Assembly: GCA_937625935.1 (NCBI GenBank)
Contig: OW569350.1
Location: 310,001 to 374,000, forward strand
Source: Tetramitus jugosus
Lineage: Eukaryota > Protista > Heterolobosea
DNA: 64,000 nucleotides
Reading direction: 5' to 3'
Shown: piece after piece, positions 7,438 through 50,541 of the stretch
How positions within the stretch are numbered: the first letter of the stretch is position 1
How the letters are laid out: each line of letters opens with the position of its first letter
Position numbers and translations under genes: made by a program
The notes under the pieces: generated by a model
What the model saw: the letters and a program-made list of their open reading frames with translations, nothing else
The model's database searches: none
What the model was told of the DNA's origin: nothing

Positions 7438-7509
7438 ACTTTACGAAAACAGGACTACCAAGCGAGTTGAAGAAAACTAAATGACGATACAAAACCAAGT
7501 TGGCAAAAG

Positions 7510-7582
7510 TACCGACGACGGGACTCGAACCCGCGACCACTGGATTAGAAGTCCAGTGCTCTTCCAGCTGAGCTACGACGGC
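7510..7582 (-). tRNA. tRNA-Arg(TCT)
   Basis: Reverse complement GCCGTCGTAGCTCAGCTGGAAGAGCACTGGACTTCTAATCCAGTGGTCGCGGGTTCGAGTCCCGTCGTCGGTA folds as a cloverleaf with anticodon TCT. One T:T mismatch in the acceptor stem. Followed by a T4 run. Confidence 0.93.
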
Positions 7583-7629: not shown

Positions 7630-7885
7630 TCCAGGGAAAGAACCTATCACTACGATACTTGGTTTGATAAAGCAGTGGTGCAATGGAAAACGAAATTAAC
7701 GAGCAGAGAAAGATAGGCAAAAACTATTTGCTAGGAATGTTAGGCGTAGAAACTCAAGCTGTTAAACAAGTGGCCAAAGGGTTCAAGAAGGAGGTAGTCA
7801 AGATGAAAGCTAAGCAGCTTGTGGACAACACTTTGTGTAAAGAGAAGGGACAATAAACAGCGCAACCACTGTTTGTTTTAAAAAA
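7630..7885 (+). mobile_element. Degenerate 5'-truncated non-LTR retrotransposon remnant upstream of tRNA-Arg
   Basis: Frameshifted translation DTWFDK...NEQRKIGKNYLLGMLGVETQAVKQVAKG...KAKQLVDNT matches the C-termini of the ORFs at 48353-49471 and 49628-50414. Ends gcaaccactgtttgttttaaaaaa. The 5' boundary is approximate and no TSD could be called. Confidence 0.8.
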
Positions 7886-7988: not shown

Positions 7989-7995
7989 CGCTCGC

Positions 7996-8015
7996 GCCGT
8001 CGTCGGTACTTTTTT
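7996..8015 (+). pseudogene. Collapsed tRNA-Arg(TCT) relic (5' end fused to 3' end plus terminator)
   Basis: GCCGTCGTCGGTACTTTTTT equals the tRNA-Arg 5' end GCCGTCGT joined to its 3' end CGTCGGTA-C-T run. This gives a 17-nt perfect inverted match to 7505-7521. Confidence 0.55.
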
Positions 8016-8591: not shown

Positions 8592-8613
8592 AATAAATGA
8601 AATTTAAAAAGTG

Positions 8614-8686
8614 TGGTCGTTGCAGGGATCGAACCTGCGACCAATGGCTTATTAGACCAACGCTCTACCGACTGAGCTAAACGACC
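8614..8686 (-). tRNA. tRNA-Ile(AAT)
   Basis: Reverse complement GGTCGTTTAGCTCAGTCGGTAGAGCGTTGGTCTAATAAGCCATTGGTCGCAGGTTCGATCCCTGCAACGACCA folds as a cloverleaf with anticodon AAT. T5 terminator just downstream. Confidence 0.93.
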
Positions 8687-8759
8687 TTCTATATTTAGGT
8701 TGAATATCATAGTGGGAAAATTACTATTTTTAGACGGGAAATGAATTCGACGGGAGCAG

Positions 8760-8906
8760 TGGACAACACCAAGAGGAGGTGTGTGGAGGTGATGCATACC
8801 CTCTTCCCAAGCTCCAAGAACATGGCAACAAAAATAAATTAACAGTAAAGAGAAGAGAAAGAATAAACAGCTCTACCAACCGGTTGTATTAAAAAAACAA
8901 AATTTA
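8760..8906 (+). mobile_element. Short 5'-truncated non-LTR retrotransposon copy upstream of tRNA-Ile, 12-bp TSD
   Basis: Flanked by CGACGGGAGCAG at 8748-8759 and 8907-8918. Encodes VDNTKRRCVEVMHTLFPSSKNMATKIN*, compared with FVDHTKRRCVEVMRRLFTSSKEIAGC* in the copy at 49628-49710. Ends ggttgtattaaaaaaacaaaa. Confidence 0.9.
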
Positions 8907-11009: not shown

Positions 11010-13433
11010 ATGTGCATTCAATCAAGCATCACCAAATATGTAATCTGTTATGAGACAGTACAATCATACATATCCTACTCTATTCTCCTCCGAGTGTACA
11101 ACAAGTACAGTTGGATCATTGAAAAAAGATATGCTGATTTTATTCAACTGTACTCGTCACTCAAAACAACACTGAAAATGATGGAGGGAGGAGAGCACGT
11201 GCTACAACACAAGCTCAACACATTTCCACCAAAGCTTCTCTACCGTAACATGAACGAGAAGGGATTGGAGCAACGAAAGTTTCAATTGGAAGCTTGGCTC
11301 AATTGCGTATTGGAGGACAATTTGTGTCAATCGTTGGTATGTGTTCAAGATTGGTTGCAAGTGCCCGATTCAGTGTCGATCGATCGTCAACAAGCTCAAA
11401 TTCATTGGAATCAGCGCTTGTATGAACAAACAGAGAATGAGCAGCAACGTCTGGATGCTCTTGTTGAAAAATTGAAGCTAAAGTGGAGTCATGTGTTTCC
11501 ATCGCCGAATCAAATCATGCATCAATCTACAATGGAGCGCATGGTTGAACTGCATTCGCGAGAGTATTGGGTGCAATACTTGTTGGGCATGAATCATTTG
11601 AGGCCATTTTTGAACAGAAATGGAACCATTAATTTGCATTTTGTAATGATTGTTCCACCATTGAATGACAATAGTAATTTAAGTTATGATAATAGTAGCG
11701 ATAGTAAGAGTACGAGTAATAGTTTGACTCTGTTCCATAGTGCGATACAAATTGGACCGTTTGTCATACAGTGGAACTGTGATTCATTGGTTTCGATTCA
11801 ACACTATGAATTGATGAAGAACTCGATTATTTCATCGACAAAAATTGCATCGATACCGATGCATAGAGCCAACAGAACGGTGGAAGACAATTATGATATG
11901 CACTCCTTGTTGAATTGCATTTGTTTTTATACGTTGTCAGCGCAGTTTGATTCACGCCATTGCAATGATCACGATTTTGTCAATGATTGCTTGTCTGTAC
12001 TTGGAATTGATCTGGAGGATTCGATTGGATCATACAAGAAGAGTAGATTGTATCAATCGTTGGAAAATACGCCCTATTTGTATCGATATCTCGTATGGTT
12101 GAAGCATCCGCTTGAATATATTAATCTTCGAAAAGAGGAAGAAACAAACGCAGGGTCGACAACCATGGGCGATTTAACTTTTCCGTTCGAACAACACCAG
12201 GATCTAGATATATTAGTGAATACGATCGTAGGAAACCTGTACTATAAAACAGAGGACACAGACCATGCTGAAGCATTGAAAATGTTTTGTGATGAATTTC
12301 CTCTCGAATACAGTATTTTGTGTGCTATTGATAACGCTATGTGGATAAATCATTTGAGTAACGATGCTTCGACCAATAGTGAGCCACTGTGCATGTACAC
12401 TGATTGCATATGTCCATTCCATTACGGCAGAAAGGGAACAAATCCAATGAGTGTCACGAGTCCACTACAGCATCATGTATTTACGCACAACACGACAAAT
12501 ATTGACTATAACCAATCTCATGCACGAATATTGAGTCTATGTGGTTGTGGTATGAGAAGTTACTATATTCTGTTGATGTTGAAGAAACTGGAACAAGTAA
12601 CTGGTAGAAAAACGAGAGACCTGTTTGACTTGGTTGTGGGATCACAGCTCAGTTCAATCATTGCTGTAGGTATCTACTTGGGAACGCCGATTGATGATCT
12701 GATTGATATGTTTGTTCACTTCTCAGACAATATATTTATGAACAAGGTATCTGAAGATCCATTGGTGAGTCAAAAGCGATTGGAGAATGTCATTGCGGCC
12801 ACGATTCTGAACGGTAATGTGAATGCAGTTTTGGTAGATAACGGATTCAAGTGTCAAGTAGCTCTAGTCTCCTCTCGTTATGATCGATGCTTGCATACCT
12901 CTACGTGCGTATTCACCTCCTATCCTGCCAATAGCAGGCACTATTGCTACACTGTTAAAACAAATGCTCCTATTTTGTCCGCACTAAGAGCATGCTGTGC
13001 TATCCCAGGTTATTTCGAACCAGTCGTACGAGGTGATACCTCTTATCAATCCAGTGACCAATTTCTGGATCCGTCTGAAATTGCTCTCTGCGAGTCGAAT
13101 AGACTCTTTCCGAACAGAAAAGTAGCCATGTTGACGTTGGGTGTCAAACTGTCATCCAGCACTGATGACGAGGACGCTTCCAAGGAATCTGAACGCAACT
13201 CACTTCATGGATTAACTCTTGTTGATGAACAGAGTAACCAGACGCACCAAAATGTTCAACACTGGCTATCTCTATCACCAAAGAAGCCCATCCGATATTA
13301 TCGATTTGCACCTGATGATGCAAGCAACGGTGAAACGAGTCCAGATGTAATACAATTGCGAACACAAGTATATCTATCGAGAGAGGAAGAACCTTTCGCA
13401 TCAATGTGTGAGAGTATGTTCCAACATAAATAA
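11010..13433 (+). CDS. PX domain plus degenerate patatin-like phospholipase domain protein
   Basis: PX motifs EKRYADFIQL...FPPK...LEQRKFQLEAWL. Patatin-like RILSLCGCGMR, DLFDLVVGSQLSSIIA and ALRACCAIPGYFEP. Confidence 0.75.
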   Translation: MCIQSSITKYVICYETVQSYISYSILLRVYNKYSWIIEKRYADFIQLYSSLKTTLKMMEGGEHVLQHKLNTFPPKLLYRNMNEKGLEQRKFQLEAWLNCVLEDNLCQSLVCVQDWLQVPDSVSIDRQQAQIHWNQRLYEQTENEQQRLDALVEKLKLKWSHVFPSPNQIMHQSTMERMVELHSREYWVQYLLGMNHLRPFLNRNGTINLHFVMIVPPLNDNSNLSYDNSSDSKSTSNSLTLFHSAIQIGPFVIQWNCDSLVSIQHYELMKNSIISSTKIASIPMHRANRTVEDNYDMHSLLNCICFYTLSAQFDSRHCNDHDFVNDCLSVLGIDLEDSIGSYKKSRLYQSLENTPYLYRYLVWLKHPLEYINLRKEEETNAGSTTMGDLTFPFEQHQDLDILVNTIVGNLYYKTEDTDHAEALKMFCDEFPLEYSILCAIDNAMWINHLSNDASTNSEPLCMYTDCICPFHYGRKGTNPMSVTSPLQHHVFTHNTTNIDYNQSHARILSLCGCGMRSYYILLMLKKLEQVTGRKTRDLFDLVVGSQLSSIIAVGIYLGTPIDDLIDMFVHFSDNIFMNKVSEDPLVSQKRLENVIAATILNGNVNAVLVDNGFKCQVALVSSRYDRCLHTSTCVFTSYPANSRHYCYTVKTNAPILSALRACCAIPGYFEPVVRGDTSYQSSDQFLDPSEIALCESNRLFPNRKVAMLTLGVKLSSSTDDEDASKESERNSLHGLTLVDEQSNQTHQNVQHWLSLSPKKPIRYYRFAPDDASNGETSPDVIQLRTQVYLSREEEPFASMCESMFQHK

Positions 13434-30190: not shown

Positions 30191-32311
30191 TCAGTCCTTG
30201 TTGTTGGTCGTTGTTGGAGCAAACTTGTTCTGAAGCTCTTGCTGCAATTTCTTTGACTCTATGAGTGTATGGAACTCATCCGTGGTGGACAATCGACTGT
30301 AAGTATCTGATATATTGTCTAGAATGTTGTTGTAACATTTTGAGAACAAAATGGAATCAACAGTAGTCGTATTCTTATCAATCGCTTCCTTTAGCTGAGC
30401 AAGCAGTTCTTTCCGAACCTTACCCTCAATGTTAACCTCGAGCATACTGCCAGTAGCTATATAGTCATCTCTTATCTCAATTGCCTTCTCGATTGAAGTA
30501 AATCCCTCCTTTTTGATTGCGTAGAGCATTTTCCACAGCATTACATTCTCAGAACTGAATTCTTTTTGGCAATAATCTTCTAGCAGTTGCAAGTGCTCAT
30601 CTGAGGCAGTTAAATACTCCTCAATCAAGGATTTATCTATGGTATCAATAAGTCGGGTAGCAATTGGTTTTCCAGTAACAAAAGATATGATGTGAGGCTT
30701 GTAAACCATGATTCGATCAAAGAATATAGTACCTCCACCTCCTGCTGTCCAATAGTAAACCAAAAACTGCAACAAGAAAAATACCGCTCTAACAATACCT
30801 AGAACCAACTGCTTGCTCAAACGTGCCTCGGTAACATCATTCATCTCCTTGTAAAACACTATCTCTAGAATCATTAGAATGAGAGAATTAATAGGTATGA
30901 ATATTGAAGACATGAGCTCAATTCTGAAATGCAATGGATCGTCAAACAAGAGATAGTATTTGACTCCTTTTGACTTGATTGTCTTAAAGTTCAACACTAG
31001 ATCTACAATCAACGCAATGACTAAAACTATGAACATGACACATGTAATCACAAAACGACAAATGCTGGCCTGATAATTACGGTTCAATGATGCAGGATCC
31101 AAGCTATGACCAATCAAGCCGAACACAAGTGCCATTGCCATCGCGAATATGACAGTCAATATCGTAAATGTAATCCTCGATGAGAGACGCTTGTGAAATT
31201 TGAGCATTCGACCCATTTGCTTAGTTGTTTGGTTCTTTCTAACAGAGATCAAATTGTACACATTTCTCACATGGAAATACCTCAAGAACATCATAAAGTA
31301 ATTCCAGAAGGTCAGTGCAAAGAATGCCATGGAAAGAGCCCAGAAAATCTGAGCTAGTAATCCGTTTCTCATAAAGGCAAATATGAAAGTAATGATATCA
31401 AACACATGAACCATGAACAGCAAGCCAACAGATATGAGTAATGTGGGCATTCGACTTCTCACTCTCAATGATTTGCATGTACACAGCAAGAACAATGCAT
31501 TAATACCTGCCACAGGGAACAAAACGGCCACCACGATCAGGAAAGGTGCTACAGAGTATAGAGTGAGGCTGCTCAACATGTATTCAATGTCCCATGCCAG
31601 TACCTTACAATCGGATGAAATCATTGGTTGAACAAACTGAGAAGTAGCATTCAATTGTTCTGGTTTCTTGCTAGAACCCTTTGGGTTCAGTGCTGTCATC
31701 ACATACTTCATATCAGGCAAGTTCACACCTGATATTTTGAAATTAGGGTCAAAATCCATAAAAATCCTCGTGTAGTCCATCGTGGAGTCCGAATCGAAGA
31801 ATGCCTTTGGTTTCGACTCTGAAGCTACAAATGGCATTGGACTTAACGTTGTCCAATCACTCGAATTCTTCAATAGATATCGATTGACTCTCATTGCGAA
31901 CTGACCATCTCTCTCTCGCGCTCTACTGTCCTTGAACACAACATAGAGTGTCACATTGGACAACTCTGATCTCTGTTCGTCCATAATGGTTGCATCTTCA
32001 GGCAGTGGTACCTCTTGGGTGAGTTCATTGGAGAATCCCAGTGAAATCCATCCTGAGCTCGATCCCCAGTAATCATAAATGAAAAGCGAGTATCGAAACT
32101 TGTCTACGGTCGTTGAAGCCTTCAAGTAACCATAAGGCAAGGTGTACCGGAGCCCATCAAATGGATCGATGGTAGAGTTCCAGTAACTGGGCAAGTTGGA
32201 GCAGATGGGTCCATCTTGGATCGAAATGGCTTCGGTAGTCCGTGAGAGCCCCAGCAAAAACGTGAGAAATGCAAGAAAGACCAAAAGCAATGACGACACT
32301 GTCATTTTCAT
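30191..32311 (-). CDS. Signal peptide, extracellular domain, 7TM region and RGS domain protein
   Basis: Hydrophobic N-terminus, about 7 TM segments, RGS motif LLEDYCQKEFSSENVMLW...YIATGSMLEVNI...NISDTYSRL. Confidence 0.85.
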   Translation of the reverse strand: MKMTVSSLLLVFLAFLTFLLGLSRTTEAISIQDGPICSNLPSYWNSTIDPFDGLRYTLPYGYLKASTTVDKFRYSLFIYDYWGSSSGWISLGFSNELTQEVPLPEDATIMDEQRSELSNVTLYVVFKDSRARERDGQFAMRVNRYLLKNSSDWTTLSPMPFVASESKPKAFFDSDSTMDYTRIFMDFDPNFKISGVNLPDMKYVMTALNPKGSSKKPEQLNATSQFVQPMISSDCKVLAWDIEYMLSSLTLYSVAPFLIVVAVLFPVAGINALFLLCTCKSLRVRSRMPTLLISVGLLFMVHVFDIITFIFAFMRNGLLAQIFWALSMAFFALTFWNYFMMFLRYFHVRNVYNLISVRKNQTTKQMGRMLKFHKRLSSRITFTILTVIFAMAMALVFGLIGHSLDPASLNRNYQASICRFVITCVMFIVLVIALIVDLVLNFKTIKSKGVKYYLLFDDPLHFRIELMSSIFIPINSLILMILEIVFYKEMNDVTEARLSKQLVLGIVRAVFFLLQFLVYYWTAGGGGTIFFDRIMVYKPHIISFVTGKPIATRLIDTIDKSLIEEYLTASDEHLQLLEDYCQKEFSSENVMLWKMLYAIKKEGFTSIEKAIEIRDDYIATGSMLEVNIEGKVRKELLAQLKEAIDKNTTTVDSILFSKCYNNILDNISDTYSRLSTTDEFHTLIESKKLQQELQNKFAPTTTNNKD

Positions 32312-45645: not shown

Positions 45646-45917
45646 GGACGTATAGCTTAGAGGCAGAGCGAAGGATCAGGGGTTGCTTGCCAACGTCGCA
45701 TCCAACATTATCCTTAGACGTGTGTTCGACTCGCACTGTGTCCTGTTTTGCCTTAATCCCTTCGGTCCAGCAAGAACAAAAGGCTTTTAAGGCAATTTTC
45801 TTGGCTTTAATGGATGGCTAGGTGTGGATACCCCTCCTATTCACCCGTTCACGAATGTCTTGCTTTCTTTTCCGCCGCAACGTGGTGCGTGAGCACCATT
45901 TGTTGTATTAAAAAAAA
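45646..45917 (+). mobile_element. Candidate tRNA-derived SINE (tRNA-like head 45646-45744, structured body, LINE-like 3' tail)
   Basis: A box TAGCTTAGAGG and B box GTTCGACTC. Acceptor GGACGTA/TGTGTCC, D stem GCTT/GAGC, anticodon stem AAGGA/TCCTT around a 35-nt insert, T stem GTGTG/CGCAC. Tail gagcaccatttgttgtattaaaaaaaa matches the retroelement 3' motif. Confidence 0.6.
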
Positions 45918-45978
45918 CAACCGATTCTCCAGGCCATTGGTGATGTCTTGAACGGCGTCTGCATCCAGGACATACAGG

Positions 45979-46010
45979 TTTTTTTAATACAACCAGAGCA
46001 GTTGCGACGC
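45979..46010 (-). mobile_element. Minimal (about 30 bp) retroelement 3'-end insertion, copy C
   Basis: Reverse complement gcgtcgcaactgctctggttgtattaaaaaaa. Only a partial flanking repeat (acaggt). Confidence 0.55.
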
Positions 46011-46221
46011 TCGCACAGGTCTGAGGTTTTTTTTTTTTAAAACAACACGTAGTTGCTCACTTTATTGTGTATCATTCTTTCAAATAGTAGGGACTTTTTA
46101 ACTTTCAGTATTTTCCGTTCAGTTCCGTGTCCACCAGAGACAACCGGAAATTCCAGTAAAGTTTCGGTTCAGATCATCGTTTTTAAGTTTCAGGCGGAAT
46201 CTGAAAGTAAATTTGCTTTTA

Positions 46222-47250
46222 TTAAAAACTTGGTTCAAAGTAGCCCCAATCTCTCTTCAGATTGTACATACCGAGTGCAATAAAGATACAGGCCAACAAA
46301 CGGCGATCCCCATGATAGAACGAGTCTTCTTTGTTCACTGATCTGCATATCTTGAAATGGGCGTTCATATTTTCGATAATGACTTGCTCTCGCCTTGATA
46401 AAACATCGAATACACGTTGATCGTTGGTCTTTACCTGGCAAGGCTTGAAGCCGGGGACAACATAGCAAATGCCATAAAATCCTGGATCAGCAAGAGCGAA
46501 GGTATCACCATCGAGGATGTATTTGAAGAAATGGTTGTATGTTGCTGCGAGTGCATCATGAACACGTCCTGGTATCATGGTAACGAAGGCAACTACTCTG
46601 CCAGTGAAGTCTAGTAAAATTTGTGTTGATCTTCCATGCATATGATAGTGCCCATTGTATTGCACGCTTTGACGGGATCTTGGTCTTCTTGTTCTATGAA
46701 TGGTGTTGTCGATTACACATTTGATTTGAGGATGTAAACGACTGTGTTCGTCCGTGATGATTGCATTAGGAATATACTGACAAAAATACTCCACCAATCT
46801 TGGTAAGATTTCATCTAACACTTTCGTCACATAGCCTACAGAAACATTGAAAATAAAGGCAAGGTGTTTGTTTCCTTTGTATTGTATGACAAAGTGCAAC
46901 CCCATCAACACCTTGTTCTCAAATGAGAGCAACAGAGAGGAATCAATCAGTTCTTTTCTATGCTTCTCCATTCCATTAACAATCAAATCAAATTCGCTAT
47001 GGGTGATGAATAGGTATTCCTTAAACAAACTTGGTCGTTGGACAAATCTCTTGTAGACGTTATTATGCTTTAGTGTTTGTCTCTTTCTTTTGACTACTCC
47101 TCTGCCCATTCCTTTGTTGGTTAGTAACGCTTCCATCTCCCATCGAAAGGGGTAATCGATATGACTCTCAAAATTCAAAAAATTAACGTATGAAGGCAAA
47201 GTAAATCGATTGACACTGCGACATGTCGAATTCATCATGAGAGGAACCAT
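46222..47250 (-). CDS. DDE_Tnp_4 (Harbinger/HARBI1/ISL2-like) transposase with HTH
   Basis: HTH LAFIFNVSVGYVTK. Catalytic motifs CVIDNT, PGRVHD, LADPGF, SRREQVIIENMNAHFK. Confidence 0.9.
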   Translation of the reverse strand: MVPLMMNSTCRSVNRFTLPSYVNFLNFESHIDYPFRWEMEALLTNKGMGRGVVKRKRQTLKHNNVYKRFVQRPSLFKEYLFITHSEFDLIVNGMEKHRKELIDSSLLLSFENKVLMGLHFVIQYKGNKHLAFIFNVSVGYVTKVLDEILPRLVEYFCQYIPNAIITDEHSRLHPQIKCVIDNTIHRTRRPRSRQSVQYNGHYHMHGRSTQILLDFTGRVVAFVTMIPGRVHDALAATYNHFFKYILDGDTFALADPGFYGICYVVPGFKPCQVKTNDQRVFDVLSRREQVIIENMNAHFKICRSVNKEDSFYHGDRRLLACIFIALGMYNLKRDWGYFEPSF

Positions 47251-48146
47251 CAATTGGGGATATCGTTTTTTGATTGATTTGATTTCATCATATTCATTAT
47301 ATTCATCATCATCATCGTTTGCATTTGTCGATGCTCTCTTTCCTCTCTTAATAGTTGTTGCTGTTGCTGTTGCTGTTGTTCTTGCATTTTCAGCATCATG
47401 ACCATGAGCATATGGTGCATATCACTTCTGTCTTTTCTTTCTTCTCTCTGTTCTCTAATATCATTCAAAACTTCCCGATGTTGTTTCTCTTTCTGACGAA
47501 TTCGGTTGTTTCTGACTGCTTCCTTTCTGGTCATCTCATTTCCTCGTTCAGTGTAATCTTGTGAGGATGATATTTCGTCAGATTGAACAGTGTCAGCAAG
47601 TTGTTCCTCATCATAGCGATGCATATCCTCAGATCGTGGAGACAAAGTATGTTCAGATCTTGCATAGTTTTGAGAGCCATTTTCGACCTCCCGTTCCTCT
47701 TCATTTTCAAAGTTGTCGATCAGTTCCTCAGTATCCTCGCGTTCAGCATTCCTTGAGATTGTATCAACGATAGAAGCTCTCAACTTGGTACCTGATTTTG
47801 GATTCAAATGTCTATTTTTCTTAGTTCTCACATACTCAACATGATTCTTCAGATTCTTTTCGTCTCTCTTCAAAGCCTGAACTTTTTTGTCCTGCATTAT
47901 TGCTCTCCAATTGCCTTTGTAGTAAATGTATGCATCAACGATTACTTGTGATTCTTCAGTAGTCAAATTCTTCTTCCTTTTTCTTGCAGAAGTTGATGCA
48001 GGAGAAGGAGGTTCCTTCCTCTTTTGTGGTGTGGTTTGTGATGCTGATTGACTGTGTCTGGTATTGTACCTTTGACCTTGGCCTTCATCACTTGGATCTC
48101 CAAGTGATGGTGATGGTGGTGGTGATTGGGTGTGGTCGTCTGTCAT
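47250..48146 (-). CDS. Myb/SANT-like DNA-binding accessory protein of the Harbinger-type transposon
   Basis: NLS RKRKK, Myb-like LTTEESQVIVDAYIYYKGNWRAI...RDEKNLKNH and a C-terminal coiled coil. Lies inside the TIRs. Confidence 0.8.
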   Translation of the reverse strand: MTDDHTQSPPPSPSLGDPSDEGQGQRYNTRHSQSASQTTPQKRKEPPSPASTSARKRKKNLTTEESQVIVDAYIYYKGNWRAIMQDKKVQALKRDEKNLKNHVEYVRTKKNRHLNPKSGTKLRASIVDTISRNAEREDTEELIDNFENEEEREVENGSQNYARSEHTLSPRSEDMHRYDEEQLADTVQSDEISSSQDYTERGNEMTRKEAVRNNRIRQKEKQHREVLNDIREQREERKDRSDMHHMLMVMMLKMQEQQQQQQQQLLREEREHRQMQTMMMMNIMNMMKSNQSKNDIPN

Positions 48147-48352
48147 CTTGGTTGTTTTTTTATTTGAACAGAAGCCCTTTTTATTCAGATAACTTTCAGA
48201 TTACGTGGCCTCCGGAAAGTTAAAAAACGTTTACAAGTTTTCCTTTCCGTTCCGAAGAACTCCGTGGGTAAAAAGTCCCTAGTTTCTCTTATTCTCACTG
48301 TGCCGCTCGAAGAGCGGCACTTATCTTTCCTTTCAGTGACGCTCGGAGAGCG

Positions 48353-49471
48353 TTACTGCTGTTTGTAGTCTTTTGATTGCTGGTAGAGTGTGTGCAAAGT
48401 AGCGATGCAGCGACTCTTTACCCAACTAACAAAGCTTCGTGCCTTGCGATGGGCTAGTTCTAACTTCATTCCATTCTTCACCAATGCATCCACAACTTCG
48501 TCAAGAGCTTCACTCTCAATGCCCATCATTCCGGAGAGGTACTCCCGACTGGTCTTCCGGGATCTCGGGAGAAGTACCCCGTTTCTGAAAACTACCTTGT
48601 CAAACCACAAATTCACAGTCGACCCTCGATGCAATGGGAGTCTGAGCAGTTTGTTATAAACTTCCAACACAAGTTTTCGACGAGCATCGATTGCACACTT
48701 GCACCTGATCAGACAGTGAATGATGGTTTCGGACTCAGTGCCGCACCTTGGACACTGATCCGGTTTGTCATCATCATACAAATCATTACACACTGCTCTA
48801 GTATGTAATGTGCCGCTTCTGATCTGTGCATGGAACCATTCCAATTGACGATCTATCACAAAGGGGTTCTTGAAAAACTCGAATTGGTTCTTGTGCTCCA
48901 TTGCGGCAGATTGCAACCACCACTCTGGATATTGATCAATTGTGGCCTTTCGTTCCCTGAAGATCATTTCTTTAAGGTCATCTCGACCTCTGGCGTATTG
49001 TCCATTACATCGGATTATTTGCATAAACCCCTTTGAGGGATGTAAATCCTTACTCATACATTCTGGCATTGCCTTGACAGCGACTATCAACTCCTGATAA
49101 GTCTTTAGGCCGAATCCTCTGCCGATCTCAGTTTTTAGTGCCTCGAAACTTCTAACTTCGCCATCTTGCAGTAGTTGTTGCTTCTGATAGAGTCCCGCTC
49201 TGCTCAGTAACCTCAATTGTCGTGTTGTAAGGTAATTTGACAAATTACACCCCTCGCAACGACTATGAGAGTCATCAGTGATGATAATTCCTCTCTTGTG
49301 CAATCTAACAGCACACCATTTCATAAAGGAGTGTTTGACGCAGTTGATTCTGTGGTCCAATTGGAAGACGTTCTCCAATTGGAACGTGTATTGTTGCTTG
49401 ATATACTCAAGTGAGTCGTACCACAGAATCCTAGCATCCTCATCTCTCTTCCCTCTCATCATAGCCTTCAC
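48353..49471 (-). pseudogene. C-terminal fragment of retrotransposon ORF2 (zf-RVT CCHC zinc knuckle), copy A
   Basis: LHTRAV...CPRCGTESETIIHCLIRC, typical of the post-RT region of L1/Tx1-type elements. No internal stops. RT and endonuclease are absent because of 5' truncation. Confidence 0.8.
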
Positions 49472-49490
49472 AAACAGTGCTGTGCGTCGC

Positions 49491-50414
49491 TTTTTTTTTT
49501 TTTTTTTTATTTTTTAAATACAACCATTGGTTGCTCATTTTACTTCTTTGTTGATTCTCTGTATCGGTTTCGTGACGGCAGAATGCCGTCATTATTGATT
49601 CAAGTAGTTGCTAATGCTCGTAGAGCATTAGCAACCAGCAATCTCCTTTGAACTCGTGAAGAGGCGTCGCATCACCTCCACACATCTCCTCTTTGTATGA
49701 TCGACAAATTGTTGGGCCTTCTCCCTTGCCTTCTTCTTCTCTATTTCACTCTTCGTCAGTCCTTTGATCACTTGTTTCAATACCCAACATGCCAAGCATG
49801 TATTCCTTGCTAGTTTTCCTCCGCTTATTGACTAGTAATGCGCCGTTGCTCCATCGTTGGTTGTCGAACCACATGTCTACTCTTTGGTCCTTGTGAAGAC
49901 CCATTTTACTCAGCTTGGTGGAAACTTCCTTCACCAACAGCTTTCTGGCCATTATCGCCACCGGGCATCTAACGAGACAATGTAACACCGTTTCCTGTTC
50001 AAATTTGCATTTGGGACATAGCGTATCCATGTCCACTACTCCATAGAGATGTTGGACAACGGCCTTAGTGTGAATTGTGTGACTTTTCACCTGAGCCACA
50101 AACCATTCCAGTGCACGGTCGACCCTGAAAGGGCATCTCATAAATTTAAAATCTACAGCACCTCCTAAACACTTAGAATGTATCCACCATACCTTCTCCT
50201 CTTTCACCCTATCCCTATGTCGTCGCAAGAAGACTCGCCACAACTGTTCCTTCTCTACGACCTCAAAACTATCATTGTACATTAACCTTGGGGTAGTGTC
50301 GGCTGAATGCTCGTGATTTCCATTGCACTGTAGCATTTCAAGGTCACTTGTCAAGTACTTGTATCTGCGAGAACTAATTCCAAAATTTCCATGCCTTTTG
50401 ACCAATTCGCTATG
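49491..50414 (-). mobile_element. 5'-truncated non-LTR retrotransposon copy B, 15-bp TSD
   Basis: Long poly(A) at 49491-49515. TSD AGTGCTGTGCGTCGC at 49476-49490 and 50415-50429. Encodes IHTKAV...CPKCKFEQETVLHCLVRC. A small frameshifting deletion lies after GMLGIET, and the native stop is at 49628-49630. Confidence 0.92.
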
Positions 50415-50470
50415 AGTGCTGTGCGTCGCACAGGTCTGAGGCCTTTTTTCATTTTTTCTATATAATAACA

Positions 50471-50541
50471 GCATCTGTAGTGTAGGGGTATCATGCAGCG
50501 TTGCCATCGCTGCGACCCGGGTTCGAATCCCGGCAGATGCA
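50471..50541 (+). tRNA. tRNA-Gly(GCC)
   Basis: GCATCTG acceptor pairs with CAGATGC. Anticodon arm CAGCG-TTGCCAT-CGCTG. GGTTCGAATCC T arm. T5 terminator. Confidence 0.96.

Follow-up and report, generated by a model that had tools for sequence, protein, structure and literature searches.

We analysed a 64,000-nucleotide stretch of contig OW569350.1 (positions 310,001 to 374,000; hereafter the window, to which all coordinates refer), in which three copies of a retrotransposon without long terminal repeats (non-LTR) are stacked upstream of a tRNA-Gly(GCC) gene (50471..50541, + strand; ARAGORN; Rfam 62.9 bits), the presumed target. All three (i.e. copies A, B and C) are 5'-truncated members of one lineage, lie on the - strand and face the tRNA-Gly gene with their heads. 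Copy B (49491..50414) is nearest to the gene and comprises the C-terminus of open reading frame 2 (ORF2) with a CCHC knuckle, a 3' untranslated region (UTR) and poly(A); loose contig ends indicate that 14 nt have been deleted from it between 9-nt direct repeats (49771-49779), with a resulting frameshift. Copy A follows outward and is split into a 5' part (48284..49486), which carries 377 open codons of the ORF2 C-terminus (stop 48353) and the start of the 3' UTR, and a 3' tail with poly(A) (46027..46085). Between these two parts lies a 2,192-bp DNA transposon, overlooked in an initial annotation that had treated A as one insertion; apart from it, A amounts to 1.26 kb of long interspersed element (LINE) sequence. 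The outermost mini copy C (45979..46010, maybe to 46014) consists of a family 3' end and poly(A).

Copies A and B are both bounded by target-site duplications (TSDs). The 16-nt TSD of A is found at 46011..46026 and at 50426..50441, the latter 30-45 nt upstream of the tRNA gene (distances are counted in nt upstream of tRNA +1), whereas the 15-nt TSD of B is found at 49476..49490 and at 50415..50429 (42-56 nt upstream). Both are perfect repeats at exactly the places given in the initial annotation, neither has a third copy in the window, a poly(T) run adjoins the left copy of each, and the probability of a chance match is ~1e-8 to 3e-8 over 100 positions. The tRNA-proximal copies of the two TSDs overlap by 4 nt, and B together with both of its TSD copies is enclosed by the TSD pair of A. 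As had been claimed, the TSD of B consists of 4 nt of the TSD of A plus 11 nt of A's own 5' end. These 11 nt are coding sequence of A, which has R-T-A-L-F-V-K here, and P0001, the closest relative of A among 32 matches (72% identity), has R-T-T-L-F-V-K in frame. The 5' end of B is fixed at 50414, because B-family contigs from other sequencing runs (X1, X2, X4, X7 and X8 are the runs whose contigs, joints and loose ends were compared with the window) continue with other letters beyond this position (listed loose ends of three of the four runs). Since the 11 nt are native to A and the TSD of B spans the border between A and its TSD, B inserted after A, and the order proposed initially for these two copies holds.

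The junction between A and its target forms a short inverted repeat (50419-50433), in which the first 7 nt of A and the neighbouring 7 target nt match perfectly around a 1-nt spacer. For this reason we examined whether the 11 nt might be fold-back filler copied from the target; the homologous codons in P0001 rule this out. The inverted repeat may have influenced the truncation point of A or the nick of B.

The place of C is more tentative. Its own duplication is merely 5-6 nt long (45974-78 / 46015-19), which is near chance; if it is real, the TSD of A includes 4 nt of C's head, and C may have inserted before A and be the oldest copy, an argument that is partly circular. Of the age order B, A, C read outward from the gene in the initial annotation, the step from A to B thus stands, while the rank of C is weak.

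In target-primed reverse transcription (TPRT), priming takes place at a nick on that edge of each TSD which adjoins the poly(A). Priming nicks would accordingly fall at -29 (A), -41 (B), -36 (C, if its duplication is real) and -61 (a further copy at a tRNA-Ile gene), and second cuts at -45, -56 and -73 (A, B and the tRNA-Ile copy). The four nick contexts agree on no consensus and are not rich in T; within the limits of four sites, this speaks more for position than for sequence. The priming nick of B would lie 4 nt inside the TSD of A, among bases older than A, and its second cut in sequence made by A. Hence, the idea that A created the insertion site of B applies to the second cut only, and the TSD overlap alone is no proof of distance over sequence. 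What remains of the suggestion that distance defines the site is tRNA-relative targeting and the lack of a common cut-site sequence.

Several traits identify the family as non-LTR, i.e. poly(A) 3' ends, variable 5' truncation and TSDs of variable length (12-16 nt). A and B share 37% amino acid identity over 190 columns (460/813 aligned nt identical); both the marked divergence noted initially and the reuse of one zone at tRNA-Gly by diverged subfamilies are therefore borne out. The A and B proteins themselves have no significant Pfam match, and A has no RNase H match. An ORF2-type C-terminal region (CCHC/zf-RVT) is recognized through relatives, profile and fold: zf-RVT is matched in 7/8 relatives scanned (two above the cut-off), the family profile aligns with an RNase H + zf-RVT protein (hhalign 96% probability, E 1.5e-9) and, as a lead only, zf-RVT is present in 29% of the members of one atlas cluster set. 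The best fold match of an AlphaFold model of the ORF2 part of A (m2d82ff88fc93, pLDDT 72.7) is to R2 proteins (R2Tg; Z 10.1, rmsd 4.6, 231 aligned), followed by L1 ORF2p (Z 8.3, rmsd 11.9, 194 aligned); the best Foldseek E-value for the model is 2.8e-3, with none <=1e-3. A spans the region from the segment behind the reverse transcriptase (RT) domain to the knuckle, and no PD..D/E..K restriction-like motif after the knuckle, where R2-like clades have a C-terminal PD-(D/E)xK endonuclease, is visible by eye in the family protein alignment. We found no full-length ORF2 relative among 3617 longer-protein candidates, only chance-level matches in a PDB sequence search with the family protein, and no flanks of other copies in metagenomes, where a protein scan gave 589 pattern matches with 0 confirmed and a 3'-end pattern scan gave 0.

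Model residues 73-147 (~49046-49270, - strand) form a small helical domain similar to the RAD51 N-terminal, RNAP alpha-CTD and SAM folds (Z 5-7), which is a common fold; this segment presumably also resembles part of the ORF2 of fish L1/Tx1 elements. Both 3' UTRs contain two GC-rich hairpins (A, 48284-48355; B, 49560-49640) despite weak sequence identity. A conserved 3' stem-loop is unproven, with 6 pairs and 0 compensatory changes in an alignment of five of the six family ends (copy D, described below, omitted).

The stack at tRNA-Gly is not the only case in the window, as three of the four tRNA genes bear an upstream, head-on copy. A truncated family copy (7654..7885, + strand; 5' end approximate) faces tRNA-Arg (7509-7582, - strand) with its head, and a truncated B-type copy (8760..8897, + strand) lies upstream of tRNA-Ile (8613-8686, - strand) between the copies of a 12-nt TSD (8748-59 / 8907-18) that is 62-73 nt from the gene. 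The distances from head to tRNA gene are 45 (A), 56 (B), 73 (Ile) and ~71 nt (Arg). For three of four loci to fall with the right polarity into a zone 26-80 nt upstream, P is ~3e-6, the zone having been picked post hoc. The family 3' motif, which was derived from the same copies that it counts, is found six times in the window against 0.08 expected, each time at a tRNA locus. Outside the tRNA loci, neither tblastn with 32 relatives (four clusters) nor nhmmer detects any family copy in the window, including ~12 kb of non-ORF sequence. Moreover, A- or B-type sequence is joined to the start of tRNA-Gly at other truncation points in X1 (48727), X2 (49655) and X4 (49824), and joints of D-type to A-type and of D-type to D-type sequence in other runs suggest that stacks exist at other loci too. 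It is thus likely that the family aims at tRNA genes, as slime-mould elements do.

Our preferred reading, to which we assign a probability of roughly 0.8, is that one non-LTR lineage likely inserts by TPRT ~30-70 nt upstream of tRNA genes with its head toward the gene, probably steered by RNA polymerase III (Pol III) factors bound at the gene and not by the local sequence. As the insertion zone would be set by the tRNA gene, each newcomer would land between this gene and the earlier copies, and the stack would grow on the gene side. In this sequence of events C would come first (probable, on weak evidence), then A and then, as the nested duplications indicate, B, with the DNA transposon entering the 3' UTR of A apart from the series. 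By analogy with TRE5-A, the tether may be to TFIIIB/TFIIIC, as far as the available portions of the sources go (PMC5911963, PMC5006619, PMC3159450).

Several points weigh against this reading. The tether is drawn by analogy only; all copies are truncated and hold no endonuclease, RT, ORF1 or 5' UTR. Only four tRNA genes are open to inspection, and copy D breaks the upstream, head-on rule. The four nick sites are also compatible with a weak sequence preference, since two end in AGG and two contain GTCG. The three joints to tRNA-Gly in other runs have short sides of 21-28 nt (21-31 nt, as far as shown, with the D-type joints included), few of the intervening letters are known and joints of this type are prone to error; the window may itself derive from X1, and X1 and X2 come from one study. 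Finally, it is the younger copy B that is frameshifted, while the ORF of copy A is open.

Insertion might alternatively not be tRNA-directed, with copies landing anywhere and surviving in scarce intergenic space, or being guided by a weak preference for certain sequences or by copies already in place (self-insertion). The window is that of a compact eukaryotic genome, ORFs of at least 150 aa cover 79% of it, copy D is not upstream, and GTCG by the inferred nick is common to B and the tRNA-Ile copy, as is AGG to A and C. However, untargeted insertion would leave unexplained why the ~12 kb of non-ORF sequence away from tRNA genes is free of copies, why polarity is fixed at three loci and three outside joints and why three nicks fall within 12 nt at tRNA-Gly, and the copies at tRNA-Arg and tRNA-Ile had no earlier copy on which to home; we consider it improbable. 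We give very little credence to the notion that A and B arrived as one read-through transcript from elsewhere, where their order had already been set. Head-to-tail copies could indeed be co-transcribed, and stacks appear at other loci, but both copies of the TSD of B hold 4 nt of the TSD that A has at this very locus, so that B was cut in here after A unless a 4-nt coincidence is combined with 5' read-in.

Targeting could also be two-sided, as in dictyostelids, with the A, B and C types upstream (TRE5-like) and the D type ~130 nt downstream (TRE3-like), which is compatible with our preferred reading. Mini copy D (45875..45917, + strand) is tail-to-tail with C and lies on the same strand as, and 130 nt downstream of, an intron-containing tRNA-like gene (45646..45744, + strand; Rfam 44.9 bits; missed by ARAGORN), inside the 40-150 bp window stated for TRE3 in the available text of PMC5911963. 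By contrast, this is one locus with no TSD, the tRNA-like gene is possibly a pseudogene, and in X2 the poly(A) end of a D-type copy is followed by A-type sequence, as it would be in an upstream stack; two-sided targeting is thus possible, though tentative. A bolder and rather unlikely extension is that an independent, ancient heterolobosean non-LTR lineage homes on Pol III complexes from either side of a tRNA gene, is unrelated to TREs and possibly nearer to the R2-like branch, and may tether through a helix-hairpin-helix-like ORF2 module (model residues 73-147). If this were true, tRNA-directed LINE insertion would be recurrent across eukaryotic supergroups, and the stacks would be datable records of activity.

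Regardless of how insertion is directed, the stack gives an order of events and not a demonstrated age; the proposal of a chronological record therefore holds for A-then-B order only. At 6-7 of nine listed A positions the letter of the window is in no X2, X4 or X7 contig compared, and most listed B letters are common to high-depth X2 contigs (both among the 40 difference rows listed out of 399). As a sample and not a count, this tilts the balance towards an older A, or one that the X2, X4 and X7 strains lack. No empty, A-only or B-only joints were found among 15/41 and 12/12 joints, which is uninformative, given that repeats interrupt the contigs and that 49481-49522 is masked.

The DNA transposon in the 3' UTR of A (46089..48280, - strand) makes up half of the stack interval. 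It has 12-bp terminal inverted repeats (TIRs) starting with AG, a 3-bp TSD (AGT; 46086-88 / 48281-83) and two ORFs, i.e. a 342-aa DDE transposase (46222..47250, - strand; Pfam DDE_Tnp_4 E 1.5e-7, above the cut-off; HTH_Tnp_4 below the cut-off) and a 298-aa ORF (47250..48146, - strand), possibly Myb/SANT-like, with no Pfam match and atlas leads <=0.8. The empty site of this separate insertion is seen as a joint (46084->48280) in X1, X2, X7 and X8. One 2,196-nt contig in X4 covers this transposon alone, which suggests several insertion sites, and an internally deleted, diverged relative is present in X8 and X2 (joints 47237->47442, 47568->47622 and 47791->47921). According to the available text of PMC4482050, the Pangu group is defined by a 5'-ANT-3' TSD, a TIR of 11-40 bp starting with AG or GG and two ORFs, one of them DDE. 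By its TSD, TIR and ORF count, and without a tree, the nested element may be called a Pangu-like member of the PHIS (PIF/Harbinger-group) transposons, although it is shorter (2.2 kb versus an average of ~3.5 kb), has a weak HTH match and resides in a probably heterolobosean host, whereas the same source records the group from plants, fungi and animals.

Copy D is a member of a subfamily that has a long 3' hairpin and whose contigs reach very great depth in X1, X2, X4 and X8. Summed over contigs, the depth of this subfamily in X2 is ~12,000-13,000 versus ~50 in flanking genes, which roughly points to a high copy number; it is possibly the main non-autonomous or SINE-like form. No TSD was found adjacent to copy D or to the tRNA-Arg copy. 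The tRNA-like gene near D has C at the expected U33 and the anticodon AGG in the usual register, and beside it an X7 contig carries 198 different letters upstream of 45638. At 7995-8014 (+ strand), 8 nt from the start of tRNA-Arg(TCT) and 13 nt from its end meet in the gene's own 7-nt direct repeat, and a T run follows; a second tRNA-Arg copy, oriented away from 7509-7582, seems to have collapsed here, perhaps by deletion or as an artefact of assembly. Near tRNA-Ile, a 7-nt piece of the TSD of the local copy is repeated 16 nt nearer to the gene (8733-8739), possibly as a scar of an earlier event.

We then compared the stack with known systems, for which the sources were available in part. It is well supported as TRE5-like in the way that it works, which we set apart from a claim of TRE5 membership. 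TRE5-A, -B and -C of Dictyostelium discoideum are likewise non-LTR elements with an oligo(A) tail, 5' truncations and a 5' end that faces the 5' end of the tRNA gene (PMC5391098, PMC5911963, PMC5006619). TRE5 elements are further marked by a place in the TRE clade of the RT phylogeny, an APE-RT-ZF type of ORF2, an ORF1 that binds TFIIIB, A/B/C modules and dependence on the B box and on TFIIIC-TFIIIB. TREs form TRE-TRE tandems from new copies at occupied genes, with de novo TRE5-A copies at 91/98 occupied tRNA genes, one of them 46 bp upstream of the occupied LysCUU-2 gene (PMC5391098). The TRE5 zone of 40-54 bp upstream overlaps with the wider range seen here (45, 56, ~71 and 73 nt). There are also differences: (i) the TRE5 host belongs to Amoebozoa and the present host likely to Discoba, as its eIF6, for which the best named matches are Acrasis kona and Willaertia magna (79%), points to a probable heterolobosean, while Nup107 and the ORF at 30191-32311 gave no match; (ii) subfamilies of mere 37% identity use one site here; and (iii) TRE tandems are typically described without integration into each other, whereas B cut 11 nt into the head of A. 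NLTR-B of Polysphondylium pallidum, which is also non-LTR and sits upstream of tRNA genes at 39-64 bp, carries RNase H instead of a zinc finger, unlike A, which has no RNase H match and ends in a knuckle; as NLTR-B is unrelated to TREs, it is a precedent for convergence (PMC5006619). Copy D recalls TRE3 of D. discoideum by its position 130 nt downstream of a tRNA-like gene and its same orientation, but it is a single case with no TSD and by its 3' end belongs to the lineage of the upstream copies.

Reviews, in the portions available, name tRNA-gene-targeted non-LTR retrotransposons from dictyostelids only (PMC5911963, PMC5006619). We found no report of tRNA-targeted LINEs in Heterolobosea or Discoba in a limited literature search, with most subscription journals and Repbase outside its scope; 'tRNA' is absent from the main text of a heterolobosean transposable element survey (bioRxiv 10.64898/2026.06.24.734286), whose supplementary library might hold relatives. 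Distance-defined targeting and tandems with the newest copy nearest to the gene are already known, and experimentally shown, for Dictyostelium TRE5-A (PMC5391098, in its available text), and a chronological stack is not new because it is a known consequence of such targeting there. What is new is the host lineage. A heterolobosean case would extend tRNA targeting by LINEs to another supergroup and, next to the dictyostelid elements, would offer an independent system for studying LINE recognition of the Pol III complex, which bears on safe-harbour gene insertion.

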